Assembly (NCBI GenBank): GCA_041662745.1 | Contig: JBAZRV010000008.1 | Location: forward strand, 954-32,953 | DNA length: 32,000 nt | Source of the DNA: Patescibacteria group bacterium | GTDB taxonomy: Bacteria; Patescibacteriota; Patescibacteriia; 2-01-FULL-39-33 | Direction: 5' to 3' | Shown here: positions 12,513-31,800 of the stretch, piece after piece | Numbering within the stretch: the stretch's first letter is position 1 | Layout: each line of letters begins with the position of its first letter | The notes under the pieces: model-generated | What the model saw: the letters and a program-made list of their open reading frames with translations, nothing else | What the model was told of the DNA's origin: nothing | Databases searched by the model: none | Made by a program: the position numbers and the translations under genes

Positions 12513-12541
12513 ATCTTAGCTGACTTTCCAAACGATTACAA
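12513..12541 (-). promoter_or_regulatory. Candidate promoter for rarA (TTGTAA-17 nt-TAAGAT)
   Basis: On the minus strand, TTGTAA sits at 12541-12536 and TAAGAT at 12518-12513, directly abutting the first ATG. Motif match only. Confidence 0.3.
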
Positions 12542-12611
12542 ACCCCTGATCATTTAATGAGCAATTTTGTGTTCAATGACGCAACTCAGCCTTGGCGCCG
12601 GAAAAATTAAC

Positions 12612-12633
12612 AAAAAAAAGGGGCGATCCCTTT
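12612..12633 (-). terminator. Candidate intrinsic terminator after the dCache histidine kinase
   Basis: The minus-strand RNA is AAAGGG-AUCGC-CCCUUU followed by a total run of 8 U. It begins about 25 nt after the stop at 12657. The stem is short (3 GC plus 3 AU). Confidence 0.45.
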
Positions 12634-12656
12634 GTTGCAGATCTTTCATTAATCGA

Positions 12657-15032: not shown

Positions 15033-15048
15033 ACCGCCTCAATGTCAT

Positions 15049-15249
15049 TTAATTAATCAGCTGACTTAACTGTCCGGCAACAGACATATGCTCTATCTCC
15101 TGATCGCGAATAAGCAGTACGGCATCACGTTCAAAAGGATCAGCTAAGCTTTCCAAGAATTCATCATAGAGATTCAAAGCTTGCTTTTCCAGGGCATACA
15201 ATTCAACAAAACTTTCAGCTAGCTCGGCTTTGCTTTTTTTTGTTTTCAT
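15049..15249 (-). CDS. 66-aa all-helical ORF, either independent or the frameshifted C-terminus of the double-PAS protein
   Basis: The ATG at 15249 lies inside the last 35 nt of the upstream ORF. The sequence is helical and acidic and contains EIEH. Confidence 0.45.
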   Translation of the reverse strand: MKTKKSKAELAESFVELYALEKQALNLYDEFLESLADPFERDAVLLIRDQEIEHMSVAGQLSQLIN

Positions 15250-16354
15250 ATTTGATTAATTCTTTAAATTTTTTCTCATGTTCCCGGCTCTCCTCAAGCA
15301 GCTGTTCAAGAAGTTTTTTTATCTTTCTGACCTCAACGGCGCTTAAATCGTAACTGCTTATCTTTGCCAAATAATCAGTAGTTAAGCTCTGCACCAGATC
15401 ATCTTCCAGTTCTACGGCCTCCTGAAATTTTTGCGACCAGCTTTTTTCTGTCGCTGCTGGTTGCTCAACCGAACCCTTCCTAAGTTGTTCTTTAAGCTTG
15501 ATTATCCGCAGTTCCCGTCCGACCATAAGCTCATTCAAACGTTCCAAGTCCCTCATTTTCTCCTTCAAACTATTCTCCGCCAGCCGCCGCTTAGTGATAT
15601 CCAATGTAAAACCGATAACGCCCACGATGTCGCCGGCGGCATCGCGATAAGGGATTTTATCGGTTTGGACCCAGAGAGTTTTATTAGGCAAAACCAAAGT
15701 TTCAATAATATTCCTCTTGGCCTTGCCCATTCTAATTACTTCCTTGTCATCATCCCAATAGGCTTGAGCCTGGTCTTTGCTGAAAAGATCAAACATGGAT
15801 TTGCCCTGAAGCTGTTTCTTAGACATCCCCATTACATCGCTGAAGGCCCGGTTAACGCGGATAAAGCGATTATTTATATCTTTATAAAATATCCAAGCCG
15901 GCACGGAATCAAGAATTACTTCTATCTCCTGCTGCTGCCTGTGCAGAGCGTCTTCTATTTTCTTGCGCTCGGTAATATCACTGATTATACCCACCAAATA
16001 AAAATTTTTATTGCCGCTCTTAAAGACGTTCTTTTTAGTTATGATATTATGCGTGACACCCCTGGCATCAGTGAATAATTCTTCATTGATATTCTCTTTG
16101 CCATTTTTAAACACCATTTCATCTTTACTCCAAAAAACCTTGGCCTCTTTATCCGAAAAAAAATCATAATCGGTTTTACCGATAAGCTTCTGCCGAGGGT
16201 ACCCCATAAAAAGACAGTAAGCATCGTTAAGCAGAATCCAACGATGCTTGCGGTCTTTGACAAAAATCGGATCAGAAACCTTATTAATGATATCCAAAAG
16301 CACTTGCTCATCTTTGATAGAAAAATCAGAAGGCTTTGAAATTGGCGTTAGCAT
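15215..16354 (-). CDS. Double-PAS domain protein with a C-terminal coiled-coil/helical region and no kinase core
   Basis: There are two PAS-like units, ending ISDITERKK and TLDITKRR. No H-box or ATPase motifs are present. Confidence 0.85.
   Translation of the reverse strand: MLTPISKPSDFSIKDEQVLLDIINKVSDPIFVKDRKHRWILLNDAYCLFMGYPRQKLIGKTDYDFFSDKEAKVFWSKDEMVFKNGKENINEELFTDARGVTHNIITKKNVFKSGNKNFYLVGIISDITERKKIEDALHRQQQEIEVILDSVPAWIFYKDINNRFIRVNRAFSDVMGMSKKQLQGKSMFDLFSKDQAQAYWDDDKEVIRMGKAKRNIIETLVLPNKTLWVQTDKIPYRDAAGDIVGVIGFTLDITKRRLAENSLKEKMRDLERLNELMVGRELRIIKLKEQLRKGSVEQPAATEKSWSQKFQEAVELEDDLVQSLTTDYLAKISSYDLSAVEVRKIKKLLEQLLEESREHEKKFKELIKYENKKKQSRAS
15234..15241 (-). other. A8 coding-strand homopolymer at the junction of the double-PAS ORF and the 66-aa ORF
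   Basis: T8 on the plus strand. Deleting one base reads ...YENKK-SKAELAESF... straight through. Confidence 0.6.
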
Positions 16355-16364
16355 AAGGAGGGGG

Positions 16365-16736
16365 TTACTTAATGCCCAATTTTTGCTGGACTTTAACGGC
16401 TACATCGGCGACATTCCAATCCACCTTGACCAAGTATTCAAAAGTTCCCAAGGCCACGGCTTGAGCGACCTTAGCTGAGTCGCTTAAATTACTCAAAATT
16501 ACCACTTCGGCTTTCTTGCCCCACCGATCCTTACGTAACTTGGCTAACATTTCCAAACCGTCCATCTTGGGCATTACCAAATCTAATAGAATTAAATCAG
16601 GTTTCTCTTTCTTGGCTAACCGTAAGCCCTCAACACCGTCTTTGGCAAGTAATACCTTAACCTGCCCGGCGTCAAATTGCGATGACAACGCCTTAAGCAC
16701 GATTGGTTCATCATCAATGATTAACAATTTTTTCAT
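16365..16736 (-). CDS. Stand-alone response regulator receiver (CheY-like, no output domain)
   Basis: 123 aa with the IIDDE acidic pocket, phospho-acceptor LLDLVMPKMDG, ILSNL and YLVK. Confidence 0.9.
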   Translation of the reverse strand: MKKLLIIDDEPIVLKALSSQFDAGQVKVLLAKDGVEGLRLAKKEKPDLILLDLVMPKMDGLEMLAKLRKDRWGKKAEVVILSNLSDSAKVAQAVALGTFEYLVKVDWNVADVAVKVQQKLGIK

Positions 16737-16770: not shown

Positions 16771-19746
16771 TTATTTAACGGGCAGGGTAAAATAGAAAGT
16801 TGTGCCCTTATTCTCTTTGGAATCAAACCAAATCCTGCCGCCATGCGCTTCAACTATGCCTCGGGCGATATACAGCCCCAAACCTGTGCCTTCCGGCGCC
16901 ACCCCCCTGATGTTATCCGCCCTGAAAAATCTCTCAAAAATACGATGTTGCTGATACTGCGGTATGCCATAACCCTGATCGGTAACGGCTATGGACCAAT
17001 AGTCCCCTTGGCGCTGGCAATCAAAAGTTATTTTAGCTTTATCGGGAGAATACTTAATGGCATTGCTAATCAAATTATTCAGCATTTGGACGATTTTATC
17101 AAAATCAAAAACACAAATAATTTTCCCGTTTAAACCGCAACCAAAAATCATGCTGATTTTCTTTTTATTGGCGGTTAACGTCTGATCTTCTATGGCGCGG
17201 CTAAGGGCTAAACGCAAATCGGCTGGTTTTTTGTTTAAGGTGAATTTTCTTCCCGTCTCAAGATGGGAAACGTCTAACAAATCATTAACCAACTTAATCA
17301 TTCGTTCATTGCTATGATAAATCTGCTCAACAAAATCACGTTGCTCCTGATTCAACTTGCCAATCTTCTCCTTTAACAGCAATTCGCCAAACCATTTAAT
17401 GCCGGTTAAAGGCGTCCGCAACTGATGTGAAGACATGGACACGAATTCTGATTTTAAACGATCAATTTCCTTGGCCTTGCTGATATCGCGCAAAATAGCC
17501 ATGTCGGCCGGTTGACCATTTAAAACAACAACTGAACTATTGGTTTCTACCGGTATGGCTTTGCCGTGCTTATCAATAACGGCGAATTCATAACGAGTAT
17601 CCACCCTCTCCCCCTGCATGCGACGCTTGTAATTGGAAGCGACCAGGCTCTTATATTGCGGAGCGATAAAATCAACCATGGGTTTGCCGATGACGTCTTG
17701 AGGAACCATGCCGGTAATCTTCTCTATGGCCGGATTGGCATATTTAACTATACCCCCCTGAATCAGTATAACGGCATCATTACTGCGTTCCACCAGGATA
17801 CTGTATCTTTCCTCCGATTGCTTGATTTCCCGTTCCCAGATCTTATGCTGAGTAATATCTTCAACAACTGTCAAAAAATATAGCGGCTTATCACTATTGT
17901 TTTTAATTAAAGTAGCGTTAACTCGGCCATAAACAATTTTTTTGTCTTTCCTGATATAACGTTTGTCCACGCTATAAACAGAAATCTTACCTTTAAGCAA
18001 CAATTTGACTTTTTCTATATCCCTTTTGACTTCATCGGGATGCGTAATATCGGCAAAGGTCAGCTTCTCAAGTTGGTCCTCGGAGTAACCCCAAAATTTA
18101 ACAGCAGCCGGATTAGCACTAATGAATTTATTATCCAAGCCGACCAAGACAATGGGTATCGGGCTGTTTTCATAAATCGCTCGCAGGCGATCTTCGCTGT
18201 TAACCAGCTTTGTTTCTGTTTGGTGACGCGCAGTAATATCGCGGATGTTGCACTGAACGACTTTGGTGCGGCCAATATTATAGACATTACTGACAAATTC
18301 CACGCTGATCGGCTTGCCGGACTTGGTTCTTAAAGGCAAATTATCATAATGGACATACTTCTTTTTCTTTAAAATTTCAAAAGATTTCTTGGAAGCCATT
18401 ATGTCCTTAAATAACCCGATTTCCCACAATTTCTTCTGTAAAAATTCGTCTCTTCCATAGCCCAGCATCTCAATTAAATACGGATTAACCTCTTCAATTT
18501 CTCCGGTCTCAACATTAAGAATCAAAATGCCGTCCTTGGCCGCTTCAAACAACCGACGATATTTCTGCTCTGACTTAACTAAACTTTTTTGGATTTTTGT
18601 ATCCTTAGTGACATCAGTGAAGCGCCAAACCCGGCCTACGATCTTACCGTCAATTTTTTGCGGTAAAGACAAACGATCAAAAACCCGGCCATCCTTAAAA
18701 TAAACAGTATCGGAACTTTTATTTGCCGGATGTTTATAAAGGTAGTTTACTTTGGTTAAAAATTCTTTGGCATCGGTAAGCTGGCTCACGACATAAGACA
18801 ACAGCTTCTTGTCATTCTTCGTCTTCGCTAATTTCTGGGGTATTTTCCATAACTCCAAAAATTTTTCATTATAAAATGACACTCTGCCCCGGCGATCAAT
18901 CACCAGGATGCCATCCGATGAAGTATTTGTGATTGAATCCAACAGGGAAACATAATTTTTTACGGTTATTTCATTTTTTTTAGTTTCGGTAATATCGCGG
19001 GAAAAACCCATGACATTGCTTATTCGGCCTGACTGATCCCTGACCGGCGTTAATTGCGTACTCAGCCAAACATCACCATGGGCAAAATGAGAAAGATCTT
19101 CCCGATAAGAGTGTTGACCGCTACGGAATACCTTATTAAGGTTAGCTTTTTGCCGTTTGGCCACGGCGGGCGGAAACAAATCCTTAACGCTTTTACCGAC
19201 AATGTGAATCGGCTGGGCATTAAACTGTTTGGCTCCGAATTCATTAACATAAGTTATCCGACCGCCCCTATCAACCAAGTAAATACTGTCATGAGCCATC
19301 TCAGCTAAGGTTTTATAAAGCACTTCGCTTTCTTTTTTTTCGGTAATATCGCGAAAAAAAGCGATTAAGCAATCGCGAGAATTAATCTTTATTCTGCCAA
19401 AGCCGGCAGAGACGAATTTAATTTTTCCCTTCTTGGTTATTATCTGCAAGTCCGCGCTTTTATCAAAACCCTTGCCTTTAGCCAATTGCGTAAAAACTTT
19501 TAGCGTTTTTTTAATGCTGTTTGCCGGATGCAAATGCCTGATGGACAACTTAAGCAATTCTTTTTTGGCATAACCGAATAAACGGCAGGCGGCCGGATTA
19601 GCATCAATGATCTTGGTTGACAAGTCAGCAATCACAATGGCATCAGCCGTGTTATTAAACAACATCCGATAATTATATTCGCCACCGGCCATCAGTTCGT
19701 CCGGGGTGGGGCAGGATTGTTTTTGATTAAAAATCAGCCAATTCAT
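16771..19746 (-). CDS. Cytoplasmic multi-PAS (about six PAS units) sensor histidine kinase
   Basis: Six repeats end in the characteristic DIT motifs: FRDITEKK, SRDITETK, FTDVTKD, IRDITARH, VEDITQHK and LRDISKAK. The H-box is EFVSMSSHQLRTPL. The ATPase motifs are DQGYGIP and GTGLGLYIAR. No TM helix is present. The track start at 19773 is TTG, and I prefer the ATG at 19746 (MNWLIF). Confidence 0.9.
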   Translation of the reverse strand: MNWLIFNQKQSCPTPDELMAGGEYNYRMLFNNTADAIVIADLSTKIIDANPAACRLFGYAKKELLKLSIRHLHPANSIKKTLKVFTQLAKGKGFDKSADLQIITKKGKIKFVSAGFGRIKINSRDCLIAFFRDITEKKESEVLYKTLAEMAHDSIYLVDRGGRITYVNEFGAKQFNAQPIHIVGKSVKDLFPPAVAKRQKANLNKVFRSGQHSYREDLSHFAHGDVWLSTQLTPVRDQSGRISNVMGFSRDITETKKNEITVKNYVSLLDSITNTSSDGILVIDRRGRVSFYNEKFLELWKIPQKLAKTKNDKKLLSYVVSQLTDAKEFLTKVNYLYKHPANKSSDTVYFKDGRVFDRLSLPQKIDGKIVGRVWRFTDVTKDTKIQKSLVKSEQKYRRLFEAAKDGILILNVETGEIEEVNPYLIEMLGYGRDEFLQKKLWEIGLFKDIMASKKSFEILKKKKYVHYDNLPLRTKSGKPISVEFVSNVYNIGRTKVVQCNIRDITARHQTETKLVNSEDRLRAIYENSPIPIVLVGLDNKFISANPAAVKFWGYSEDQLEKLTFADITHPDEVKRDIEKVKLLLKGKISVYSVDKRYIRKDKKIVYGRVNATLIKNNSDKPLYFLTVVEDITQHKIWEREIKQSEERYSILVERSNDAVILIQGGIVKYANPAIEKITGMVPQDVIGKPMVDFIAPQYKSLVASNYKRRMQGERVDTRYEFAVIDKHGKAIPVETNSSVVVLNGQPADMAILRDISKAKEIDRLKSEFVSMSSHQLRTPLTGIKWFGELLLKEKIGKLNQEQRDFVEQIYHSNERMIKLVNDLLDVSHLETGRKFTLNKKPADLRLALSRAIEDQTLTANKKKISMIFGCGLNGKIICVFDFDKIVQMLNNLISNAIKYSPDKAKITFDCQRQGDYWSIAVTDQGYGIPQYQQHRIFERFFRADNIRGVAPEGTGLGLYIARGIVEAHGGRIWFDSKENKGTTFYFTLPVK

Positions 19747-19769: not shown

Positions 19770-22700
19770 TCAAACATTAGCTGACTGCCTTTTTCTGACC
19801 CGATACAGCCAGAAAATGACAGCGACTAAGACAATTAAGGTTATAACTGTCGTCTGCCAGTTTAGATAACGATAAATCATTACCCAAAAGTTGCGCTTGA
19901 CCGTAAAGGTGCTGACCGGACTGGGACGGCTCTTGACCTGCGCCGTTGAATCCAGGGTAACGGCAAAAACAGTATGCTGGCCCGGGGCCAGTTCTGTTAT
20001 ATCTTGCGAGTGATCAATACGCCAATTGCCCTGACTGTCAGCGCGCGTACGATAAATCAAAGCCTGATCGCTATGAATATAAATGATAACATCCCGATTG
20101 GGCAAAGAGACGCCGGAGAAACTCAGAGTATCGCCCGTAACCACGGTCTGCACGTTGGTAACTTGCGGTACCGGGATGCCGGCCAATTCTACGGCTTGAG
20201 CGTTCAACTCCACCAACTCTGCCGTTGGAGTCGGTCCAGTGGGGATGGCGGCAGCGGTTATTGCCGGCACAGCCGGCGTCGGCAGAACCACGACCTTATT
20301 AACAGCCACACTGGCTGAATCGCTGGTGTTGCCGGCCTGATCGCGACTGACAGCGCCAATAATATGTTGGCCGTCAACCAGCGCCGAGGCGCTGGGCAAT
20401 CGGAAACTCCAAGCGCCGGACGAATCGGCGGTTACGGTAAAGCTGCTGCGGTTGTCTAAAGTGATAATCACCTCAACGAGCGGTTCAGCTACGCCGGTGA
20501 TTATTGGTGTCGCTTCAATTATGGCTGAATTATTAGCCGGATTTAAAATTATCGGAACCGCCGGCGCCACACTGGTAATTATCAGAACAACCGGATCAGA
20601 AACCTGGCTGATATTCCCCGTTCCGTCAGTCGCCCTGACCGTTAAGGAATGGTTGCCCGGTAAAAAATTAAAAACCTGATTGAATCGGCCGCCATTGTCG
20701 GTAGCATTGCTTAATTGAGCGAACAAAACTCCGTTGTCAAACAAGTCAATACGCGATCCCGGTTCAGCCAAACCGCCGATAATAGTTATTGTGTTGTTGG
20801 TCGGCGAGTCCAGCGGATTCAAAAGCGGCTTAACCGGCGCAGTCGTATCCGGCACCAAAATGGCACCACCGCCGACCACTGGCGGGATGACGGGCGGAAC
20901 AACCGGAGGAGTTACCGGAGCAAAGACGTTAAGCTGGGTAACCGTCGCTTCATTGCCGTAATCGTCTATGGCCCAAATCTTAACATAATAATTGTCAGTG
21001 ATATTCAAACCGGTGATGACCGTGGAGATGGCTAAGGGATTGGACAAGTTAGCATCGTTAACCACGCTCCATTTGCTGGCCGCGCCCGTGCGATTTATGA
21101 CATCGCTTTCCGTTGCGTCATGCCATAACTCGTAGTGATTGAAATTAGCATCGGTTGTCGCTTGCCAATTCACGGTAACAGTCGTGGCGGTTTCCGAAAA
21201 CTTGCTCAAAGAAGAAAGCCCCAAAGGCGCTCCCGTATCAACGGAAAAGTTAGCTGATTCATAATACGCGCTGGCATTGCCAAAACTGTCAGTGCCGCTA
21301 AAACGCACTCGCATATTGGAATTTTCTTGATTGATGAAATCCGCGCCGGCGTTCCAAATAATTGCTTTATTATTGCCCGCCGTTACCGTCCCCAAATCAC
21401 CGGTCGCAGCAACCTTAGTAACCGTCCAAGTCAAACCGCCGTCAGAAGAAATATCCCAAGCAACATCAGCAGTCTCGCCCAAATCATAGCTTATCGCAAC
21501 ATTGTCCGTGCCAATGGTTTGGCCGGCTGAGATGCCGGAGATAATCGGGGCCTTAGTATCCAAAGCAAAATTGCCGGAAGAGTCATAAGCGCCTTGATTG
21601 CCGAAATAATCTTTAGCGCGGACGCGAACTCTCACCGTCGACAGATCTTGACCGGTAAAATCCGTACCGGCGGCCCAAGTGAAGGTCTTAGTCCCGATAG
21701 TCTGGCCGGGACCGATTTGGCCGCTTCTGGTTGTCGTGGGCACCGTCCAAGTAATGCCGCCATCATCGGAAATGCTGAATTCAATCAGATTGCCGGCCGG
21801 CGTAATATCCGTTAAGTTATAATTTATAACCACATCGGTCGTGCCGGCCGATTGGCTGGCAGTAACGTCACTGACTGCCGGGCCTTTAGTGTCAATGGTA
21901 AAATTATCAGAAATAACGATTGAACCGACGTTGCCATAACGATCCGTGCCTTGGAGTTTTATTTTAACGGCAGAATTTTCTTGATTAGGCAGGTCAACTT
22001 GCGGATTCCAACTGATACTCTTGCCGGCGCCGGCCGTAACGTTACTGCCGATATCGCCAGTTGCCGTAGTAAGAGCGACGGTATAAGTTAAACCGCCGTC
22101 AGCGGAAATTAATAAGCTAACGGTGTTGCTGGCACCGGAATTATCAGATAAATCATAAGTGATTGCGGCCAAGCCCGTACCCGGAGCCTGCGTTAAATCA
22201 ATATTGGAAACAACCGGTCCCAGGGTATCCGCATAAAAAGCCGAGGAAGCCGCCAAATTACTGTCAGCCAAAGCATCCGAGGACTTCAAGCGCGCATAGA
22301 CCGTGGAATTCTCCTGATTGGGCAAATCAATCGCTATGTCCCAGGCAAAAACGTAAGCCGTACCGGCGGAAGCGAAAATTAGACTGGAAGTGCCGTTTGA
22401 ACCCACCCCTAATTTTTCGGTCATAGCCTGCCAGTTGACATTATCAATAGAATACTCAAAAACAGTTAAGTCATTAGTGTCATTTTGCGCGTCCGCGCCC
22501 GTATAATTGATTAATACGTAACCGCCGCTGGCCTGCTGAGCTGCGCTTGAGATATTAATTGAGGGGGCGGTATTAGCAATACCGGCCACTGTGGAAAAAT
22601 CGGATTCGGAAGAGACTGAATGCGCGGCATCACTCGGATTGCGGGATTTGATTTTAAAGCTATAGTTAGCCACCGGCGAACTCAAGCCATTAATGGTTAC

Positions 22701-24617
22701 TTGACCGCTGTTACCGCTGGTTTGGCCCCATTGGCCGATGCCGGTGCCCAGTGTCTGCCAAACCGCACTGGCGCCTAAGGTACCATTGCTTTGCACGTAT
22801 TGATCGGTGAAAACTTCATAAATGGCGTACGGCACATCACTGGCCTCGCCAAAAGCCGGATTGATCGTTACATCTACCGCAGTGTTCTGCGGATTATTAA
22901 CTGTGGGCGCTGAGGGCGTATATGGCTTGACATATTTATAACTCGCCGTAGGAGAGGTGTTCTCATTTATCCTGGCGTGGCCGTAATTATCGGTTTCTAT
23001 AATTTTAACCTTGGCAATATAGTCATGGCCGGTGAGCGTACCGCCAGCCGGTACGGCTTGGTTAGCCGGAGTCGCAGTATTACTTTCTCCCGTGGTGGTG
23101 GCCGAATAGGCGTTGCCGCTAAAAGCGACAAAAAACTCATTGGTAATCGGATTAGCCTCGGTAAACGACCCGCTGACAATCGCATCAGTGTCGCCGGCTT
23201 GCGGCTGAGCCGCCAAATCGGCAGTCGCCAAGATCGCCGGAGCCAGGGTGTCCACGCTAAAGACGCCGGCTAAAACGGCATACGCGCTGCTATTGCCATA
23301 GGTATTGGTGCCGCGAATGCGGACTTTCATATTGCTGTTTTGCTGGCTATTGAAATCCACTCCCGGATTCCAAGAAACCGTCTTACCAAGTCCCGGTGCG
23401 ACCCCATAACCGACAGCGCCAGTTAAGGTGGTGGTAACCACACTCCAAGTGACGCCGCCGTCATCGGAAATATCGACACTAATAACCACATTATCGCTAT
23501 CAAATAAATTGTAAGTTATAGTGACATTATCGGAACCGACAACCTGCGCCGCCGTTAGGCCATTAATCACTGGGGCTTGAGTGTTAACGGCAAACAGGTT
23601 GGAAGTGACATTGCCGGTCGCATTGGCGTAAGCGTCAACGGCTCGCAAGCGAACCTGCATATTATTAACCTGCTGATTGGGAAAATTCGCTCCAGCATCC
23701 CAAGTGATGATCTTACCGTTGCCGGTTGTTATGCCCGAGCCAATGGCGCCGCTAACGCTTGAAGAAGCGACATCCCAGGTACTGCCTCCGTCCGAGGATA
23801 TATCCATAGCCACAACAGAACTGTTAGCATCGCTAAAATCGTAACTTATGGACACTAAACTGCTACTGACGACCTGAGCCGCGGCAACATTGGCAAAAAC
23901 CGGGGCCTTGGTATCAACGGAAAAATCAGCAGATGAAACAAGCGTTCCGATATTGCCAAAATTATCCCTGGCTCCCGCTCGCACTCTGACCGTACCCGAT
24001 TCTTGGCCGGAGTAATCAACACCGGGATTCCAGTTGATAGCCTTGCCGCTGCCCGGCACGACATTATCTCGAACATCGCCGGAAGCCGTGGAAGTCGCGA
24101 CAGTCCAAGTTGATCCGCTGTCCGAAGAAACATCAAATTCCACATAAGAATCGGATAAATCGGTCAAATTATAACTTACGGATACATTATTTGAATCGGC
24201 ATCTTGGCTGGCGGTGACCGAGGCCGTTACGGGGTTTTTGGTGTCAATAATAAACGCCGCGGAAGCCGTTATGCCGCCACTGCTGGTGCCGTCGTTAGCC
24301 TGCAATCTGACAAAAACCGTCTCATCTTCGGTGTTAGGCAAATCCGCGCCCGCGTCCCACATAAAATCATGCGCGGTTCCGGAAGAAACAAAAGTTAAAT
24401 CGGTTTTTCCGTCCGAACCCACCCCCGTTTTCTCGGTCATAGCATGCCAAACGGCATTGTCAGTGGAATATTGATAAATGACCAGGGTAGTGGTTTCGCT
24501 TTCCAAATCCGAACCGGTATAATTGATAATCGCATACTTGGTGCCGTCGGCAGTCTGAGCAACCGAATCAATGGCAATGGTCGGCGACTGGTTGACTGAA
24601 GAGGCGCTGCTGGACAA
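19770..24617 (-). CDS. Giant surface protein, C-terminal portion
   Basis: 1615 codons. The contents are Asp-box beta-sandwich repeats, FN3-like modules, a Pro-rich linker, three Ig-like domains and a C-terminal TM anchor. The nominal start is an internal TTG with no signal peptide. The frame is open upstream to 24752 and continues the repeat pattern of the upstream ORF. Landmarks include six Asp-box modules (SSDGGSTW type), an FN3 (TVTVNWQ...YYVKIWAIDDYGNEA), PVTPPVVPPVIPPVV, three Ig-like units (G.H...A.D.AGN type) and the TM helix VITLIVLVAVIFWLY followed by RVRKRQ. Confidence 0.85.
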   Translation of the reverse strand: MSSSASSVNQSPTIAIDSVAQTADGTKYAIINYTGSDLESETTTLVIYQYSTDNAVWHAMTEKTGVGSDGKTDLTFVSSGTAHDFMWDAGADLPNTEDETVFVRLQANDGTSSGGITASAAFIIDTKNPVTASVTASQDADSNNVSVSYNLTDLSDSYVEFDVSSDSGSTWTVATSTASGDVRDNVVPGSGKAINWNPGVDYSGQESGTVRVRAGARDNFGNIGTLVSSADFSVDTKAPVFANVAAAQVVSSSLVSISYDFSDANSSVVAMDISSDGGSTWDVASSSVSGAIGSGITTGNGKIITWDAGANFPNQQVNNMQVRLRAVDAYANATGNVTSNLFAVNTQAPVINGLTAAQVVGSDNVTITYNLFDSDNVVISVDISDDGGVTWSVVTTTLTGAVGYGVAPGLGKTVSWNPGVDFNSQQNSNMKVRIRGTNTYGNSSAYAVLAGVFSVDTLAPAILATADLAAQPQAGDTDAIVSGSFTEANPITNEFFVAFSGNAYSATTTGESNTATPANQAVPAGGTLTGHDYIAKVKIIETDNYGHARINENTSPTASYKYVKPYTPSAPTVNNPQNTAVDVTINPAFGEASDVPYAIYEVFTDQYVQSNGTLGASAVWQTLGTGIGQWGQTSGNSGQVTINGLSSPVANYSFKIKSRNPSDAAHSVSSESDFSTVAGIANTAPSINISSAAQQASGGYVLINYTGADAQNDTNDLTVFEYSIDNVNWQAMTEKLGVGSNGTSSLIFASAGTAYVFAWDIAIDLPNQENSTVYARLKSSDALADSNLAASSAFYADTLGPVVSNIDLTQAPGTGLAAITYDLSDNSGASNTVSLLISADGGLTYTVALTTATGDIGSNVTAGAGKSISWNPQVDLPNQENSAVKIKLQGTDRYGNVGSIVISDNFTIDTKGPAVSDVTASQSAGTTDVVINYNLTDITPAGNLIEFSISDDGGITWTVPTTTRSGQIGPGQTIGTKTFTWAAGTDFTGQDLSTVRVRVRAKDYFGNQGAYDSSGNFALDTKAPIISGISAGQTIGTDNVAISYDLGETADVAWDISSDGGLTWTVTKVAATGDLGTVTAGNNKAIIWNAGADFINQENSNMRVRFSGTDSFGNASAYYESANFSVDTGAPLGLSSLSKFSETATTVTVNWQATTDANFNHYELWHDATESDVINRTGAASKWSVVNDANLSNPLAISTVITGLNITDNYYVKIWAIDDYGNEATVTQLNVFAPVTPPVVPPVIPPVVGGGAILVPDTTAPVKPLLNPLDSPTNNTITIIGGLAEPGSRIDLFDNGVLFAQLSNATDNGGRFNQVFNFLPGNHSLTVRATDGTGNISQVSDPVVLIITSVAPAVPIILNPANNSAIIEATPIITGVAEPLVEVIITLDNRSSFTVTADSSGAWSFRLPSASALVDGQHIIGAVSRDQAGNTSDSASVAVNKVVVLPTPAVPAITAAAIPTGPTPTAELVELNAQAVELAGIPVPQVTNVQTVVTGDTLSFSGVSLPNRDVIIYIHSDQALIYRTRADSQGNWRIDHSQDITELAPGQHTVFAVTLDSTAQVKSRPSPVSTFTVKRNFWVMIYRYLNWQTTVITLIVLVAVIFWLYRVRKRQSANV

Positions 24618-27600
24618 AGCGCTATCACTGGAAGCGGCATGGGCTCCATCACTGCTATTGCGCGATTTAACCTGGAATTGATAATGGTAGGAATCGAGGA
24701 TTAAACCGCTGATATTAACTTTGCCGGCTACGCCTGAATAAAATCCCCACTGAAAAAAAGCCGGTACCGCTCACCTGCCAAACAGGACTGGCGCCTAAAG
24801 TTCCGTCGCTCTGCACATATTTATTCTGGGAACCTTCATAAATCGCGTATTCCAAACCATCGGTTTCTGCCGGATTTTTATTGATTAAAACATCCACCGT
24901 GCCAACGCCGGGATTGTTAACGGTCGGCGCCGACGGCGTGTACGGCTTAACATACTTATAGGCTGAATTAGGCGAGCCATTCTCATTGGTTATAGTCTGG
25001 CCGTAATCATCCGTATGAGTGATTTTGACTTGGGAAATATAATCATTACCGTCCAAAGTGACGCCGACAACCGTAGCCTGATCGGCCGGCGAAGCGGTAT
25101 TGACGCTTCCGGCAGTGGCGGAACCGTAAGAACCGCCGTCAATCGCTACATAAAAATCATTGGTATTGGGGTTGGCCTCGGTAAAAGAACCGCCGATCAA
25201 TGTTGTTGTTGCTCCGGCCAAAGGCTGGGCTGACAAATTAGCTATGACGCTAACGGCCGGCGGCAGAGTATCAAGAGAAAAATCGGCTGAAGGCACATTG
25301 GCCGATTGATTGGCAAAAATATCCAAAGCCCTGACCCGCGCTTGCATCGTACTTAAATTTTGATCGGGAAAATCAACGGCCGCATTCCAGGTGACGGTTT
25401 TGCCCGTTCCCGGGGTTATGTTGGCGCCGATCTCACCACTTAGGGTTGAGGTGGCCACTAACCAAGTTGACCCGCTATTGTTAGAAATATCCAATATTAC
25501 CAAAGAATTGTTCTGATCGGCTAAATCATAAGTAATTGTTACGCTTGTTCCGCCCAAAGGTTGCGTGGCTGAAACATTGGTTAGGCGCGGGGACTTAGTG
25601 TCCAAAGAAAAATCAGAAGAGGCTAAAGCGCTATTATTGCTAAAACTGTCGGTCGCGGTCAAACGGAATTGCATGTTAGTCTTTTCCTGATCATTATAAT
25701 CGGCGCCAGCGTCCCAAGTGATGGTTTTGCCGGATCCGGGTATGACTGCTACGCCCAAATCGCCAGTTGCCGAAGAGGTGGCCACAGTCCAAGTTGATCC
25801 CCCGTCGGCGGAAACAGCCAATAATAGATTAGCATTGCCGGCGTCTTCGGAAACATCATAATGAAAAGTAAAAGTATTGGCATTGCCGTCTTGGCCGGCG
25901 GAAAGATTAGACAATACCGGCGCATGCGTATCAACGGTAAAGATTGCGGAACCGCTATAAGATCCCTGATTGCCAAAGCTGTCCCGAGCTCTAACCCGCA
26001 CCAGGACATTGGTATTATATTGATTGTCATAATCAGCTCCGGCATTCCAAGCAACGCTTTTGCCAACGCCCGGCGTTACCCCTGAACCGACGGCGCCGGT
26101 TAAGCTTGAGGTGGCGACAGTCCAGGTTGACCCGCCATCGCCGGAAATATCTATCTGAATCAAAGAGCTGTTAGCGTCGGTTAAATTATAAGTTATGGCC
26201 ACGGTTCTGGCGCCGGCGTTTTGGCTGGCGGTTACATCCGAGACAACCGGAGCCTTGTTATCCAAAGAAAAATTCGCCGAAGCGACTAAACTGCCGTCAG
26301 TCAAGGTGTCGTTTCCTCTTAAACGAATCTTGGCTGTGGTTGTTTCCAAGCTCGGTAAATCCGCGCCCGAATCCCAAACAAAACTATAAGCGCTGCCGGT
26401 CGGCAAAAATATCAGATTAGCCGTGCCATTACTGCCTGCGCCGGACTTCTCTGTCATGGCCTGCCAACTGGAGCCGTCAACGGAATACTCGTAAGCGGAT
26501 AAATAAGTAACATCGCCCTGGCCATCCGTACCCGTATAAGCAATGGGGCTGTACTGCGAGCCGTCTGTTGTTTGGGCATAACTGTCTAAAACAATGCCGG
26601 GGGCGGTATTGGTGATTTGCGCCGTAGCGGAAAAAGCCGAGTCCGAAGACGCCGCATGGCCGGCATCACTGGGGTTGCGCGACTTAACCTTAAAAATATA
26701 ATTAGCCACCGGCGAAGATAAGCCGGTTATTCTGACCGTACCGGCCGAACCGGTATTATTGCCCCATTGGCCGGAACCGGTGCCGATAATCTGCCAAACC
26801 GGGCTGACGCCTAAAGTGCCGTCGCTCTGCACATATTTGGAAGTCGTGGTTTCAAATAGAGCGTATTGCACATCACCGGCTTCGCCGGCGTGCGAATTAA
26901 TTGTCAAATCCAAACGCGTGGTAACGGGATTGCTCAAGGTCGGGGCTGACGGCGTATAAGGCTTAACATACTTATAAATGGAATTCGGAGTTAAATTTTC
27001 ATTAACTCCCAGGTTGAAGTAATCATCGGTATGAACAATCTTAACCTGAGAAATATAATCATTGCCGTCCAAAGTGGCGCCGACAGCCGTGGCAAGATTA
27101 GACGGAGTAGCCGTATCACTGTCGCCGGCCGTAGATGAGCTGTAACCGCCTCCGTCAATCGCCACATAAAAATGATTGGCATCGGGATTAACCTCGGTAA
27201 ACGATCCGCCGATTAAAACCGCAGTGTCGCCGGCGTTGGGTTGAGCTTGCAAATCAGCCGCGGTTAATGTCGCTGCCGGCAAAGTATCCAAAGAAAAATT
27301 AGCCGAGGCGGAATAAACGCCCTGGTTCTGCCACTTGTCCTTGGCCCGGATGCGCACTCGCATATTGCTTTTCTGTTGGTTGGGATAATCCGCGCCGGCA
27401 GTCCAATAAATTGTCTTGCCATTGCCGGCCGTTACTCCCGCGCCGACAGCGCCGCTAACGCCGGTTGCCGGTACCGTCCAAGTATCTCCGTCATCGCCCG
27501 ATATTTGCATCTCTACCAAAATATTATCGGCGGTATCATCAAATAAATCATAAGTGACGGCCACTGTCGTTGTGCCCAAGGGTTGAGTGGCTAAAACATT

Positions 27601-27966
27601 GGAAACGGTGGAAGAAACATAATCAACGGTGAAAACGGAGGAAGTGGCATAAATGCCATTGCCGATGCCGTCATTAGGCCGTAAACGAACATAAGTGGTG
27701 GTAACGACGTCGCCCAATTGCGAACGGGCGTCCCAAACGAAAGTGTGGGGCGTACCGCCGGAAGAAGCGGGCAAGCCGGAAACTCCGCTATGGGCCGGAT
27801 CGGTGGTGGAGGCGGTCATAGTCACCGCGTCGGCAAAGGTGCCGGATAAGGAATACTCATAAGCCGTCAAACTGGATATATCGTCTTCCGCGTCTTGCAA
27901 ATTATAATTGACATGGACATAACCATAAGTTGTGTCTTGCGCCGGCGCCACAGATTGCACCTGGGG
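21234..27966 (-). repeat. Intragenic coding repeat array of ~110-aa modules nested in a ~2-kb super-repeat
   Basis: There are ten Asp-box modules following the pattern DTxAPv...Y.L.D.....isxDGGxTW.V.....G..G..v..G.GK.i.W.ag.D...Q....m.vR.r..D..gN. There are four copies of an SxDxxxW variant module (YEYS.D...W.AMTEK.G.GS.G). There are three copies of a YKYVKPYTPSAPT / FN3-like block. Approximate super-repeat boundaries are 26617-27966, 24590-26616, 22569-24587 and 21234-22568. The copies are clearly diverged at the DNA level. Confidence 0.85.
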
Positions 27967-29316
27967 TCGCTGATTTTGCGTGTAAGTAATGGTGATATTA
28001 TCCAAAATCACCTGCTGAGTGCCATCGCTCGACAAGTAAGCGCGCCATTTTATTTGATTGGTAGAAGTGGTGAATTTAGAAATATTGGCGTTAACATCGG
28101 TTGCTGTATTATAATCAGTCGTTAAGGTGGTGGTCGCCCAAGCTGAGCCGTTGTAATATTGCCAATTAGACCCGTCATCAGCTGACAATTGATAATAAAT
28201 TTCTCCGCCGTTTTTAGTCGCTGTTTCCACGAAAGAATTCCAACTTACCGTCTTGAGCATCGTCAATGAGGCGACTGGAGTAGTTGTTGGCTTATCGGAA
28301 GCATAAGCATGAGTGGTTTTCGACCAATCCAACTGGATATTGTCAAAACCAACCGTATAAGGACCAATATTAGAACCGCCGGTTTCCAGCCAAACAGCTA
28401 ACTTAAGATAATAAGTGCCAATAGCCGTTACCTTGGAAGAAACATCCAAATTGCTGACCGAAGTCCAACCTTGGGTAGCGGTTATTTCTCCCGACGACCA
28501 GACCTCTTGGCCGATAGTCGGCGCGCCGGTGCCAGTATCAATAAAAGCGTAAACCTTAAAGGTTATGGGCGGATTGGGAGTAGAATCATAAGCTGTAACA
28601 TGATAATCAAAACTTACAGTTGCTGTCGGATCGGTAACAGTGGTGGTAAAGCCCTGCCGCCAATAACCGCCTAATTCATCATCTTTGCCGGACGGCGCGC
28701 TGATATTTACCCAGCCGCCGGGATTGCCGCCAGTCGTAATCCTAGCTCCGGTAATATTAACCTCGCCCCCTCCCTGGCCCCAATCGGCATAAGTCCAACC
28801 GGTGGTATCGCTGTCAAAACCGGGGTTGGTGATGTTGCCACTATCGGTCGTACCATTATCTTTTAATTGAGCTACCCCGCCGGTTACCTCAATTTTGGCA
28901 GGGTCATAAGTGTAATCGCCGGCGTTGTCAAAAGTCCAATCCTGCGTGTCGGCCAAAATCTGAATTGCGCCCAAAAAAATAAAAGATAAGATGCCGACGA
29001 CCAAAATTTTCAAAACAAACAGGCCTCCCGCGCCGCCTGCAGTGGCCAAACTGATGCGCCGCCTGACGGTGTAAACCCGCAGAGGCTTAACGGCTTTCTG
29101 CCGGCTGGGAAAAATCATTCCTTGCTCTTGCAATCGGTCCGGCGGAACCAACAGGTACATGGGCAAGGAGACAACGGCAAACACGACTTCTATCGCCAAT
29201 AATTCTACGGCTAAAGGCAGGACTCTGTACCATTGTCCGGTTTTAACGACTTTTTGACGCAAACCGAAAACATAGCCGGAATAAGAAAAAAATAGATTTA
29301 GCCAGCGCTTAGACAT
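24715..29316 (-). CDS. Giant surface protein, N-terminal portion
   Basis: The contents are an N-terminal membrane module, a CBM-like head and Asp-box repeat modules. The ATG at 29316 (MSKRWLNL) is preferred over the track TTG at 29376, because it starts 2 nt after the upstream stop and aligns with MKNKWLNL of the neighbouring paralog. There are two hydrophobic segments, an NPGFDSDTTGW jelly-roll-like region and four Asp-box modules. The ORF ends in out-of-frame residues (FSVGILFRRSRQS) right after a T7 run. Confidence 0.85.
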   Translation of the reverse strand: MSKRWLNLFFSYSGYVFGLRQKVVKTGQWYRVLPLAVELLAIEVVFAVVSLPMYLLVPPDRLQEQGMIFPSRQKAVKPLRVYTVRRRISLATAGGAGGLFVLKILVVGILSFIFLGAIQILADTQDWTFDNAGDYTYDPAKIEVTGGVAQLKDNGTTDSGNITNPGFDSDTTGWTYADWGQGGGEVNITGARITTGGNPGGWVNISAPSGKDDELGGYWRQGFTTTVTDPTATVSFDYHVTAYDSTPNPPITFKVYAFIDTGTGAPTIGQEVWSSGEITATQGWTSVSNLDVSSKVTAIGTYYLKLAVWLETGGSNIGPYTVGFDNIQLDWSKTTHAYASDKPTTTPVASLTMLKTVSWNSFVETATKNGGEIYYQLSADDGSNWQYYNGSAWATTTLTTDYNTATDVNANISKFTTSTNQIKWRAYLSSDGTQQVILDNITITYTQNQRPQVQSVAPAQDTTYGYVHVNYNLQDAEDDISSLTAYEYSLSGTFADAVTMTASTTDPAHSGVSGLPASSGGTPHTFVWDARSQLGDVVTTTYVRLRPNDGIGNGIYATSSVFTVDYVSSTVSNVLATQPLGTTTVAVTYDLFDDTADNILVEMQISGDDGDTWTVPATGVSGAVGAGVTAGNGKTIYWTAGADYPNQQKSNMRVRIRAKDKWQNQGVYSASANFSLDTLPAATLTAADLQAQPNAGDTAVLIGGSFTEVNPDANHFYVAIDGGGYSSSTAGDSDTATPSNLATAVGATLDGNDYISQVKIVHTDDYFNLGVNENLTPNSIYKYVKPYTPSAPTLSNPVTTRLDLTINSHAGEAGDVQYALFETTTSKYVQSDGTLGVSPVWQIIGTGSGQWGNNTGSAGTVRITGLSSPVANYIFKVKSRNPSDAGHAASSDSAFSATAQITNTAPGIVLDSYAQTTDGSQYSPIAYTGTDGQGDVTYLSAYEYSVDGSSWQAMTEKSGAGSNGTANLIFLPTGSAYSFVWDSGADLPSLETTTAKIRLRGNDTLTDGSLVASANFSLDNKAPVVSDVTASQNAGARTVAITYNLTDANSSLIQIDISGDGGSTWTVATSSLTGAVGSGVTPGVGKSVAWNAGADYDNQYNTNVLVRVRARDSFGNQGSYSGSAIFTVDTHAPVLSNLSAGQDGNANTFTFHYDVSEDAGNANLLLAVSADGGSTWTVATSSATGDLGVAVIPGSGKTITWDAGADYNDQEKTNMQFRLTATDSFSNNSALASSDFSLDTKSPRLTNVSATQPLGGTSVTITYDLADQNNSLVILDISNNSGSTWLVATSTLSGEIGANITPGTGKTVTWNAAVDFPDQNLSTMQARVRALDIFANQSANVPSADFSLDTLPPAVSVIANLSAQPLAGATTTLIGGSFTEANPNTNDFYVAIDGGSYGSATAGSVNTASPADQATVVGVTLDGNDYISQVKITHTDDYGQTITNENGSPNSAYKYVKPYTPSAPTVNNPGVGTVDVLINKNPAETDGLEYAIYEGSQNKYVQSDGTLGASPVWQVSGTGFFSVGILFRRSRQS
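24753..24759 (-). other. 7-nt homopolymer (T7 on the coding strand) causing the frameshift that splits the giant gene
   Basis: With T6 the reading is ...WQVSGTGFFQWGFYSGVAGKVNISGLILDSYHYQFQVKSRNSSDGAHAASSDSALSSSASSVNQSPTIAID. This reproduces the motif series GTGxGQWG / ANYxFKxKSRNPSD / SSxSxFS seen in the two other copies. Confidence 0.85.
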
Positions 29317-29318
29317 AG

Positions 29319-30140
29319 CTAAAGAGTTAATATGGTTAAGAAAATTCCTAATAAGATGATAATAATCACCGACCAATTGGCCAAGGAATCAATATTCTTG
29401 GCGATTAAATCAAACCAAGTGGAAGTTACTTTGAAATATTGGGTCGGCGCAGTCTCGCTCCTGGTCCCCTGCTGTTGATTGTAACTAAAAACCAGCACCG
29501 AATGATTGCCCTCGCTTAAACGAAAATTGCTTTGCAGTTGTTCTATCCGCCAGTTGCCGGCTGAATCCGCATCGGCCGTATAAACCGCCGTCTGCTGATC
29601 CGACAACAATAAAACAACCGTAGCCAGCGGTTGTCCAACGCCTGAGAAGACGTAATTGCCTCCCCTGATTTTTTTGACTTGTCGCAATTCCGGCCTCGCC
29701 ATAGTGTTTACTACGCGAGCCGTCTGGATTCCCGTATCAGCGGCCACCAATTCCTGTTGCGTAATGTCGGCCGGCTGTAAATCGCCTACCGAATAAAGTT
29801 GCAAGGGACCGAAAACGGTCGGTGTCAAAACAATAATCAATAATTTTGCCAGCCAAACCAAAGCGATAACGCCAACGCCGGTAACTGTTAGGATGCGGCG
29901 TAAATTATAATCAAAATTCACTTGGGCATAAGACCCTTGGTCGGCGAAATAAGCCGTAACGTCGCGAGACTTCAAGGTCAGATATAACGGAAGAGAGGTC
30001 ACGGCTAAAAATATCTCCCAGAAAAAAAGTAGGAAAATATTATAAACTGCCTCCAACCCAGTTTGCCCTACGATAAGTTGTTTGCGATTATAGATGCGGT
30101 TGGTTAAAAGCAATACGAGATTTAACCATTTATTCTTCAT
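29319..30140 (-). CDS. 273-aa membrane protein, a miniature paralog of the giant protein
   Basis: It consists of the N-terminal membrane module, one Ig-like domain and the C-terminal TM anchor. MKNKWLNL, AVTSLPLYL and LRRILTVTGVGVIALVWL align with MSKRWLNL, AVVSLPMYL and VRRRISLATAGGAGGLFVL of the giant. FSGVGQP...SDQ...ADSAGNWRIEQ...EGNHSV...YFKVTS...ANWSVIIIILLGIF aligns with the giant C-terminus FSGVSLP...SDQ...ADSQGNWRIDH...PGQHTV...TFTVKR...LNWQTTVITLIVLV. Confidence 0.8.
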   Translation of the reverse strand: MKNKWLNLVLLLTNRIYNRKQLIVGQTGLEAVYNIFLLFFWEIFLAVTSLPLYLTLKSRDVTAYFADQGSYAQVNFDYNLRRILTVTGVGVIALVWLAKLLIIVLTPTVFGPLQLYSVGDLQPADITQQELVAADTGIQTARVVNTMARPELRQVKKIRGGNYVFSGVGQPLATVVLLLSDQQTAVYTADADSAGNWRIEQLQSNFRLSEGNHSVLVFSYNQQQGTRSETAPTQYFKVTSTWFDLIAKNIDSLANWSVIIIILLGIFLTILTL

Positions 30141-30987: not shown

Positions 30988-31800
30988 TTAAATATAGTAT
31001 ACCACAATATTATACCATAAACAAAATAAATGCGCATCAAGCGCGCTTGATTGGCTAAACAATTTAATAAAGTTAAAAACAAGCCGCTTAATCGCGACTT
31101 GCCGGTTTTCTTTGGGCCAAAATCTGTTCCTCAGCTTAATATAGGCGTTTAACGCTCTGTCCGGCCCGTTTAAATCATCCAAAAACAATTTCCTGATCCA
31201 GGCCAAATCAATCTCGCCGCGCAAATACTTGGCATAAATCCTATCAGCCAAGCCATAACCCTGCTGATAGATAAAGAATTCCTCAAAATCAAGATCCTGG
31301 CCAAGCGTTTTAAGCAATATCCGCCGAATATCTTCTTTGGCTTTGCCGTTTAACAGTAGTAAATCGGGCAAATGTTCATACAGATTCTCCCAATCACTGC
31401 CCAATAGCCTGGCGCCTAACATTCCCAGCAATTCCACCAATACGCCCAAAGCCATATAATCCTTAACATTTCTTCTTTTATTTCCCACCTTGTAAGAAAC
31501 GCCGGAAGACAAAAAATGGAAAGCGTGCGAAGATTCCTCCAGAATAGAATGATTGGTTGACTTAGGGCCGATGATTATTATTTGTTGTTTCAACAGATAA
31601 TAACTTAGACCGCTGGCTATTCTAATTGCAAATTCTTCTTCTAAGGACCTGGGTAATGCCAGATCATTAAACTTGACAGTTTTGCCAATCCACCAAACCT
31701 CGGGGTAACAGCTTAACTCAATTGACAAAATTTCAGACAATTCCGAAAGCGCATCATAAACCAGTTCCTCAATCTGAGCCTGCCTGTCTCGCCATCTCAT
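30988..31800 (-). CDS. Hypothetical protein, first gene of the cluster
   Basis: 270-aa ORF with an ATG start. It is preceded by AGGGAGGGAGGG (31820-31809), 8 nt upstream of the start. I recognise no family. It contains the ExxHxxH-like string EESSHAFH. Confidence 0.65.
   Translation of the reverse strand: MRWRDRQAQIEELVYDALSELSEILSIELSCYPEVWWIGKTVKFNDLALPRSLEEEFAIRIASGLSYYLLKQQIIIIGPKSTNHSILEESSHAFHFLSSGVSYKVGNKRRNVKDYMALGVLVELLGMLGARLLGSDWENLYEHLPDLLLLNGKAKEDIRRILLKTLGQDLDFEEFFIYQQGYGLADRIYAKYLRGEIDLAWIRKLFLDDLNGPDRALNAYIKLRNRFWPKENRQVAIKRLVFNFIKLFSQSSALDAHLFCLWYNIVVYYI
30996..31017 (-). promoter_or_regulatory. Tandem extended -10-like elements (TGGTATAAT, 4 nt, TGGTATACT)
   Basis: On the minus strand, TGGTATAAT sits at 31017-31009 and TGGTATACT at 31004-30996. 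Both lie in the last codons of the 270-aa ORF, about 40-55 nt upstream of the first receiver ATG. Motif match only. Confidence 0.35.

Follow-up and report, generated by a model that had tools for sequence, protein, structure and literature searches.

Several kinds of bacterial system are known in which a homopolymer interrupts or joins reading frames. Poly(A)-tract frameshifts in the endosymbionts Buchnera and Blochmannia lie in runs of ~10 or more nucleotides (nt) and are partly rescued by polymerase infidelity. In the contingency loci of Neisseria, Haemophilus, Campylobacter and Helicobacter, a one-base change in a coding-region homopolymer turns a large surface or adhesin-like protein OFF, while at sites of programmed +1 frameshifting (prfB/RF2) and transcriptional slippage (Thermus dnaX, Shigella mxiE, insertion sequence elements), overlapping frames are joined at a slippery run. 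Here we describe a giant gene, encoding an Ig-like/FN3-like repeat surface protein, that is divided into two open reading frames (ORFs) at the sequence GGC-TTTTTTT. It lies in a 32,000-nt stretch of contig JBAZRV010000008.1 (positions 954 to 32,953; the window) from a Patescibacteria group bacterium. We put at about 0.7 the probability that the split reflects a genuine, recent and non-programmed one-base insertion that truncates the protein and is the majority allele in a groundwater population. It would then be a familiar kind of event in a new instance, and neither an assembly artefact nor an evolved recoding site.

A giant gene divided between two frames

The ORFs at 24715-29316 and 19770-24617 make up a single minus-strand gene, which is stop-free once one base is taken out at GGC-TTTTTTT-CAG. 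The merged ORF spans 3181 codons from the ATG at 29316, or 3201 from a TTG, with 0 internal stops. Its parts are as follows:

19770..29316, minus strand: the entire interrupted gene for the giant Ig-like/FN3-like repeat surface protein (ATG at 29316-29314, stop at 19772-19770; from the merged translation, orthologs and synteny)
24715..29316, minus strand: upstream fragment, 1533 amino acids (aa) from the ATG or 1553 aa from a TTG at 29376 (NCBI MFA6228504.1, "hypothetical protein")
19770..24617, minus strand: downstream fragment, 1615 codons from an internal TTG (NCBI MFA6228503.1, "Ig-like domain-containing protein")
24753..24762, minus strand: frameshift site GGC-TTTTTTT, made up of the T7 run (plus-strand A7, 24753-24759) and the Gly codon GGC (24760-24762)
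24718..24770, minus strand: overlap in which both frames are open, between a +1-frame TGA at 24771-24773 and the 0-frame TAA
24715..24717, minus strand: premature TAA, 12 shifted-frame codons beyond the T7 run
24618..24714, minus strand: 97-nt apparent intergenic gap, which is conserved coding sequence (…ISGLILDSYHYQFQVKSRNSSDGAHAASSDSA…) in the downstream frame

The coding strand at the break reads TGG CAG GTG AGC GGT ACC GGC TTT TTT TCA GTG GGG ATT TTA TTC AGG CGT AGC CGG CAA AGT TAA, and the out-of-frame tail beyond the T7 run, GTGFFSVGILFRRSRQS, is 12 codons long and ends at the stop. The tail peptide of a truncated product would be GTGFFSVGILFR, and the junction peptide of a read-through product GTGFFQWGFYSGVAGK. 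The frame of the downstream ORF is open from 24770, with a TGA five codons 5′ of the run, and the two frames are jointly open over 17 codons. A shift anywhere in 24718-24770 would restore the full-length product, and the T7 run is the sole slippery element there. As frame 0 encodes …VSGTG and frame +1 encodes FFQWGFYSG…, the switch is confined to GGC-TTTTTTT-CAG.

A search with the merged protein returned more than 30 Patescibacteria proteins of 3139-3212 aa that cover 100% of the query, from metagenome-assembled genomes (MAGs) of Candidatus Buchananbacteria, Uhrbacteria and Magasanikbacteria. The closest ortholog, P0001 (locus L001), is 3181 aa long and 82% identical to the merged protein. 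Its junction peptide, GTGFFQWGFYSG, is exactly the one that an earlier note on this DNA, made from the sequence alone, had reconstructed; beyond it, P0001 has VSGKINIS and the window VAGKVNIS. Every full-length ortholog (31/31) aligns unbroken across the junction and the 97-nt "gap", and the motifs FQVKSRN, SSESALSS and ASSxNQSP are conserved across the gap region. We also surveyed 44 loci, 21 of them from GTDB species representatives and 23 from JGI metagenomes. The frame is open over the junction in 23/23 JGI loci and in all junction-spanning GTDB-representative loci but one, L031.

Synteny gives the same picture. In the window, at P0001 and at a further ortholog, P0003 (locus L004), the flanking order is a 250/270-aa protein, 139-aa and 127-aa response regulators, a 273-aa protein and the giant gene, and in all three loci the giant gene is followed by a PAS histidine kinase of ~1000 aa and then another response regulator.

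The exceptional locus, L031 (1935-13174; JACPHT010000006.1, Candidatus Uhrbacteria NC_groundwater_421), is the only other disrupted family member among the 44 loci, and its damage lies away from the window's break site. The orthologous giant gene there is spread over three frames. In two successive repeat copies, the sequence after KITHTDDYGQTVDNEN skips the expected YKYVKPYTPSAP… stretch and the frame changes, and there is an in-frame TAA at the conserved YAIYE motif. Either this copy has truly decayed or its repeats are misassembled.

Internal repeats of the protein also join the two ORFs. In the merged protein, KYVKPYTPSAP recurs at residues 802/1474/2147, YVQSxGTLG at 848/1520/2193, GTGxxQWG at 865/1537/2210 and MTEK at 974/1646/2318, all with a period of 672-673 aa. 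The register of this super-repeat (~672 aa) is maintained solely in the merged frame, and the frameshift falls inside copy 2, within a predicted domain. Such agreement goes well past what chance would give. The structural elements that bear on the break are:

24648..24936, minus strand: FN3-like beta-sandwich in super-repeat copy 2 (merged residues ~1461-1556; AlphaFold2, Foldseek)
19791..19868, minus strand: C-terminal hydrophobic anchor (merged residues 3150-3175, …WQTTVITLIVLVAVIFWLYRVRKRQ; hydropathy scan)
28945..29229, minus strand: two conserved N-terminal hydrophobic segments (residues 30-59 and 88-124; hydropathy scan)

An AlphaFold2 model of the orthologous segment is a beta-sandwich whose core has a predicted local distance difference test score of 82-94, and the top 50 PDB matches found by Foldseek are all FN3 domains (probability ~1.0, TM-score on target up to 0.67). 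Pfam gave no fn3 match on the junction module, only a weak one to CRLF2-like_D2 (E = 0.017), and on the two ORFs it identified only Big_13, near the C-terminus. The FF dipeptide at the break is in the long loop that links predicted strands five and six, and the truncated product would therefore lose the last two strands of the predicted domain.

The earlier note had read the two giant ORFs as one ~3,181-codon gene split at the T7 run, and the single-protein orthologs, the synteny, the exact peptide match and the position of the break inside a domain all agree. Translation of the frames and alignment to the 31 orthologs bear out its reading of the 97-nt gap as open in the downstream ORF's frame, and the block-for-block match that it saw to the other copies of the module holds, since the 672-673-aa anchors are in register only when the ORFs are merged. 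It had allowed for a stop in its reconstructed frame, of which the merged ORF has none, and had proposed a comparison with orthologous loci in relatives, which turn out to be single genes and not two genes with their own starts. The downstream ORF does begin at an internal TTG without an N-terminal export signal, in a context that is not start-like, and the upstream ORF does lack the C-terminal anchor, which a hydropathy scan of relatives places in the downstream half.

Which base is extra? The codons at the site compare as follows:

P0001: ACC GGT TTT TTT CAA (in-frame T7)
P0003: ACT TCT TTC TTC CAG
window: ACC GGC TTT TTT T CAG

Relative to all orthologs, the window has one base extra at GGC-T7. 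The earlier note's single extra T is thus right as to the number and place of the base, but the base could be a C instead of a T. On this comparison, either a T6 after GGC has grown to T7 or an ancestral T7 has gained a C in front of it; these origins are indistinguishable and lead to the same protein.

Presence in several assemblies and age of the insertion

If the two ORFs are halves of one gene, is the extra base carried by the organism? The source contig (32,953 bp), with the split proteins, is also in NCBI and JGI/IMG, and exact look-up of the window's proteins found the same 1533 + 1615 aa split in three other assemblies:

L011: ENA ERZ27249449, contig k141_1534693 (a MEGAHIT-style name), 20.9 kb, carries the same junction
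L010: Logan SRR18595301, 15.2 kb, carries the same junction
L012: Logan SRR6484324, 11.7 kb, carries the same junction

All three have an identical ACCGGCTTTTTTTCAGTGGGG and are 99.98% identical to the window, with 2-3 mismatches each. At 25924 and 25954 (30 nt apart, codons 1121 and 1131), synonymous third-position differences set the window against the three mutually agreeing assemblies, and L011 differs from the window additionally at 16972; no repeated 20-mers that would explain the differences at 25924 and 25954 were found near them. The Southern Ontario landfill study from which the JGI datasets with close relatives come used Illumina HiSeq 2x150 sequencing (PMC9723747). MAG names and accession patterns suggest that both Logan runs sampled groundwater well GW1/OW334, SRR6484324 in 2016 and SRR18595301 in 2017. 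The insertion would then be the majority form, as assembled, in two or more Illumina datasets that seem to derive from one landfill-adjacent groundwater well.

The downstream part of the gene is well preserved. Its 1,647 codons contain 0 stops, and the Nei-Gojobori ratio of nonsynonymous to synonymous divergence (dN/dS) against the P0001 gene at L001 is 0.096 downstream and 0.132 upstream. Signs of decay (extra stops, indels, raised dN/dS) were sought in the downstream half and not found; therefore, the lesion is recent or the downstream part is still under selection. As the downstream half shows no relaxation, the lesion appears to be much younger than the split from the P0001 lineage (~80% nucleotide identity); it predates, or arose together with, the 0.02% by which the assemblies vary. 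Pairwise dN is lowest between L001 and L004 in the upstream half (0.095) and between the window and L001 in the downstream half (0.099). That the nearest neighbor depends on the half hints at recombination or gene conversion in this repeat gene between lineages co-occurring in the same well.

No in-frame allele of the window's species was found in a collection of 15 billion proteins or in JGI contigs, and exact look-up of the merged 3181-aa protein showed it to be absent from the protein collection. A protein search with the junction peptide gave one unrelated 68% match and missed even P0001, so it is insensitive to rare in-frame fragments. A DNA pattern with exact flanks and variable tract length gave 0 matches in metagenome and genome contig sets, which seemingly lack the window's own contig.

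With a one-base insertion at GGC-T7 within the FN3-like domain of the second 672-aa super-repeat, ribosomes on templated mRNA would stop 12 codons later, leaving a 1533-aa N-terminal fragment. The encoded product comprises the N-terminal segments, ~1.5 super-repeats, a broken FN3-like domain and a 12-residue out-of-frame tail, with no C-terminal anchor. The anchor would thus be uncoupled from the exported N-terminal half. The N-terminal segments are common to all relatives, with the second preceded by RRR and signal-anchor-like; as the upstream fragment keeps both, its sequence suggests that it may be membrane-tethered instead of released. The remaining 1,647 codons would go untranslated save by non-programmed errors, possibly RNA polymerase losing one U on U7 or tRNA-Phe re-pairing in +1 on UUU-UUU-U, at a rate that probably does not exceed 1%. 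The description that fits best is that of a nascent pseudogene, or of a truncation variant of a large, adhesin-like protein, and the giant protein is probably dispensable.

Several points weigh against this account. A flawless 4.9-kb downstream half would also be expected from continued expression, through recoding or frequent reversion, and the truncated product could itself be functional. The four assemblies are only partly independent, as ERZ27249449 may re-assemble one of the two Sequence Read Archive (SRA) runs, and the assignment of those runs to 2016 and 2017 samples of the same well is one that we infer. Moreover, assemblies report the majority path only and do not give T6/T7/T8 frequencies within samples.

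Alternative explanations

Giant repeat surface proteins are the class most often phase-varied, and one alternative is that the T-run is a contingency tract toggled by slipped-strand mispairing, with an in-frame ON form and the GGC+T7 form OFF, in a sampled population that was mostly OFF. The position of the indel at a homopolymer in such a protein would fit, as would the intact downstream half, which has no relaxed constraint, as expected with regular switching back, and the retention of T7 at the same site, in frame, in P0001. However, the OFF allele is present in 4/4 assemblies, and no in-frame allele came from the protein collection or the JGI contigs. An A/T tract of 6-7 nt is also short for a contingency locus, and this one is unexceptional: the 32-kb window has 28 A/T runs of 7 or more, and the 25 in other genes are all in frame. 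Nor is the tract conserved, as P0003 encodes FF as TTC TTC. We consider phase variation unlikely. A broader proposal, that the T-run is an ON/OFF or dosage switch for a giant host-contact protein in an episymbiotic Patescibacterium, whether by phase variation or by a "savior indel" with low-level slippage that would sustain a little full-length anchored protein, is doubtful too, and deserves slightly more credence. If true, it would explain both the flawless 4.9-kb downstream sequence and the persistence of the allele across sampling years, and no earlier contingency-type switch would be on record for the Candidate Phyla Radiation.

Could the organism instead be in frame, the extra base in the consensus being due to a systematic homopolymer or GGC-context error? 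No kind of consensus error is commoner than the homopolymer indel. Just before the site lie a GGC motif and a small palindrome (CGGTACCG), both of which trouble Illumina chemistry, and the four assemblies possibly come from just two read sets. Illumina sequence-specific errors, however, are mostly strand-specific substitutions and rarely consensus indels. The same junction was obtained with different assemblers (the JGI/NCBI contig, MEGAHIT and Logan) from at least two separate Illumina runs, which makes a sequencing or assembly error unlikely. Further, the A/T runs in the window's other genes, which are 7-9 nt long, are all in frame, and homopolymers are therefore well resolved here; no other homopolymer in ~10,000 window codons is out of frame, T9 and A8 runs included. 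We regard an artefact as very unlikely.

Runs of 8-9 nt within intact genes lie at 8642-8650 (gene 8011-8784), 12233-12240, 13848-13855, 15234-15241, 16156-16163, 18974-18981 and 19333-19340, and either runs of this length do little harm in the organism or its polymerases cope well with them. Misassembly by repeat collapse was ruled out: identity between super-repeat copies is only 43-49%, and around the variant sites they have no 20-mer in common.

One assembly-specific frameshift may exist in a related JGI contig, and served as a control. The PAS histidine kinase beside P0003 is split into 685 + 305 aa in contig L004 (15840-15900) by a CCCC-to-CCC difference with two nearby single-nucleotide polymorphisms. 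This frameshift is either assembly-specific or strain-specific. L005, a Logan contig from a run inferred to be of the same sample, reads through, and comparison across assemblies can therefore detect assembly-specific frameshifts, a class to which the T7 lesion does not belong.

A further alternative accepts the insertion and holds that evolved or compensatory recoding, by +1 slippage of tRNA-Phe or by RNA polymerase slippage, yields substantial full-length protein at a fixed ratio of truncated to full-length product. Restoring the frame requires a +1 ribosomal shift, or one U lost (or two gained) in the mRNA. On UUU-UUU-U, tRNA-Phe can re-pair perfectly in +1; both frames are open over 17 codons, and nothing interrupts the downstream ORF. 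Work of Fu and Parker in 1994 is said to have marked UUU before a pyrimidine as an error-prone +1 context. A savior indel with low-level compensatory frameshifting is, in addition, a documented class (PMC5009743).

Despite these features, the frameshifted arrangement is conserved in 0 of more than 50 relatives, and the site is poorly equipped for either mechanism. The 0-frame A-site codon, UCA, is not rare (10-13% of Ser codons), and the sole Shine-Dalgarno (SD)-like string, AGGUGA, stops 11 nt short of the run, a distance unsuited to stimulating a +1 shift. Among ~20 gene starts in the window, most have AT-rich upstream sequence and no SD, with clear GGAGG-like strings only before 30988-31800 and 12657-15032; this scant SD usage further weakens AGGUGA as a stimulator. 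Local RNA folds worse than shuffled controls (z = +1.95), no terminator-like hairpin was found before the run on the coding strand, and an Rfam search around the site gave no matches, leaving no stimulatory structure near the run.

For transcriptional slippage, a 7-nt run is below the usual productive length, and rescue needs a 1-nt deletion, while homopolymer slippage mainly gives insertions. Selection against A/T runs in bacterial genomes typically begins at 9 nt (PMC1088944). PMC5574713 describes an exponential rise of transcription insertions at homopolymers with run length, and deletions as rarely associated with homopolymeric runs. P0001 tolerates T7 in frame at the same place, which would be costly if the run were very slippery and argues that it is not highly slippery in these organisms. 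Since non-programmed frameshift suppression is ~1% in E. coli (PMC10861913), an error-level leak at UUU-UUU-U, of the order of ~1% at most, is plausible. Evolved recoding itself is highly improbable.

That the halves are two functional genes, separated by adaptive fission and translated independently, is barely credible: NCBI and JGI do annotate two coding sequences (CDSs), a TTG lies at 24617 in the downstream frame, and the family includes members with one, three or more super-repeats, which shows that shorter architectures are workable, but the FN3-like domain is cut mid-fold, the 97-nt "spacer" is conserved coding sequence, the TTG at 24617 has no start-like context (the candidates' upstream sequence is GC-rich and that of the window's real starts AT-rich), the downstream product would have no export signal, and the arrangement is absent in all relatives surveyed. 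Candidate starts for independent translation of the downstream half were also looked for: from the +1-frame stop to the TTG at 24617 there is no other ATG, GTG or TTG, and no candidate has an AT-rich context. Because it has neither start-like context nor export signal, the downstream half is unlikely to yield a functional surface protein alone.

The protein family and its known counterparts

The analysis documents a conserved Patescibacteria family of giant proteins that Pfam covers poorly. Members combine hydrophobic N-terminal segments and a C-terminal transmembrane (TM) anchor with 672-aa super-repeats of beta-sandwich domains, which number from one to five or more, and the family is restricted to Patescibacteria (Buchananbacteria, Uhrbacteria, Magasanikbacteria and Falkowbacteria). 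The C-terminal hydrophobic segment with its basic tail is above threshold in 41/45 relatives and recognizable by eye in the other 4; the conserved C-terminus reads …FTVxKNFWVxxFxYLNLQTT, then ~18 hydrophobic residues, then WLYRxRKK. Lengths fall into classes of ~1.76-2.0, 3.0-3.2, 3.58, 3.88, 4.0-4.08 and 4.66 thousand aa, spaced by roughly one 672-aa super-repeat, which fits gain and loss of such super-repeats. Metagenome Ga0172379 alone contains at least seven distinct family members. Entries P0104 and P0105 are the same protein, differing only in whether the TTG start is written M or L.

At L001 and L004, two-component-system genes flank the giant gene and type IV pilus genes follow closely downstream, and a role for the family as a host-attachment factor is plausible. 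Synteny breaks beyond the kinase and response-regulator genes (window 11262-16736 vs L001 22586-29363). There, L001 and L004 have a type IV pilus cluster (MshE/PilB ATPase, PilC and several N_methyl pilins); genes for a PAS protein, a dCache histidine kinase and MgsA take its place in the window. The window's genes at 29319-30140 (273 aa) and 30988-31800 (270 aa) are conserved, have no Pfam match and are constant companions of the giant gene. The 273-aa gene ends 2 nt ahead of the giant gene's ATG, a spacing that suggests translational coupling. The giant gene (19770-29316) has 50-52% G+C, vs 40-44% in the flanking genes.

For public databases, the consequence is that MFA6228504.1 and MFA6228503.1 are halves of one disrupted gene, and their annotation as two CDSs is misleading. 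For homopolymer frameshifts in general, cross-comparison of independent public assemblies offers a cheap substitute for read mapping. The seeming dominance of the truncating allele over two consecutive years suggests that the full-length protein is dispensable or selected against in this setting. Length heterogeneity in reads, if true, would make the run a candidate for phase variation in an ultra-small episymbiont. A search of the literature on giant genes found nothing bearing on frameshifts.

How does the locus compare with known systems? As a protein, it resembles the giant Ig-like/FN3 adhesins BapA, Bap and LapF, which likewise have several thousand residues of tandem beta-sandwich domains with Big_13 near the C-terminus, and BapA-type adhesins of Enterobacter and Citrobacter are distant matches over 6-17% of the merged query. 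Unlike the BapA adhesins, it has neither the BapA prefix domain nor a type I secretion system (T1SS) signal, and instead has N-terminal hydrophobic segments, a C-terminal TM anchor and a composite super-repeat of 672 aa.

As a frameshift, it shares overlapping frames at a slippery run with prfB, dnaX, mxiE and their kind, and with prfB-like sites the possibility of +1 tRNA re-pairing. Those sites, however, are conserved among orthologs and equipped with stimulators (an SD-like element 3 nt upstream with a stop codon that is read slowly, a run of at least 8-9, or a hairpin ahead of the run), and the window site has neither conservation nor stimulators. It is like the contingency loci of Neisseria, Haemophilus, Campylobacter and Helicobacter in that a one-base change in a coding-region homopolymer of a large surface protein means OFF, but its tract is short, ordinary for the genome and not conserved in close relatives, and all four assemblies are OFF. 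With the Buchnera and Blochmannia frameshifts it has in common a single-base indel in an A/T run, an otherwise intact conserved ORF with an open downstream frame, a small-genome host-dependent bacterium and the possibility of error-level rescue by transcriptional slippage; here, however, the run is 7 nt long, and rescue would need an RNA deletion, not an insertion.

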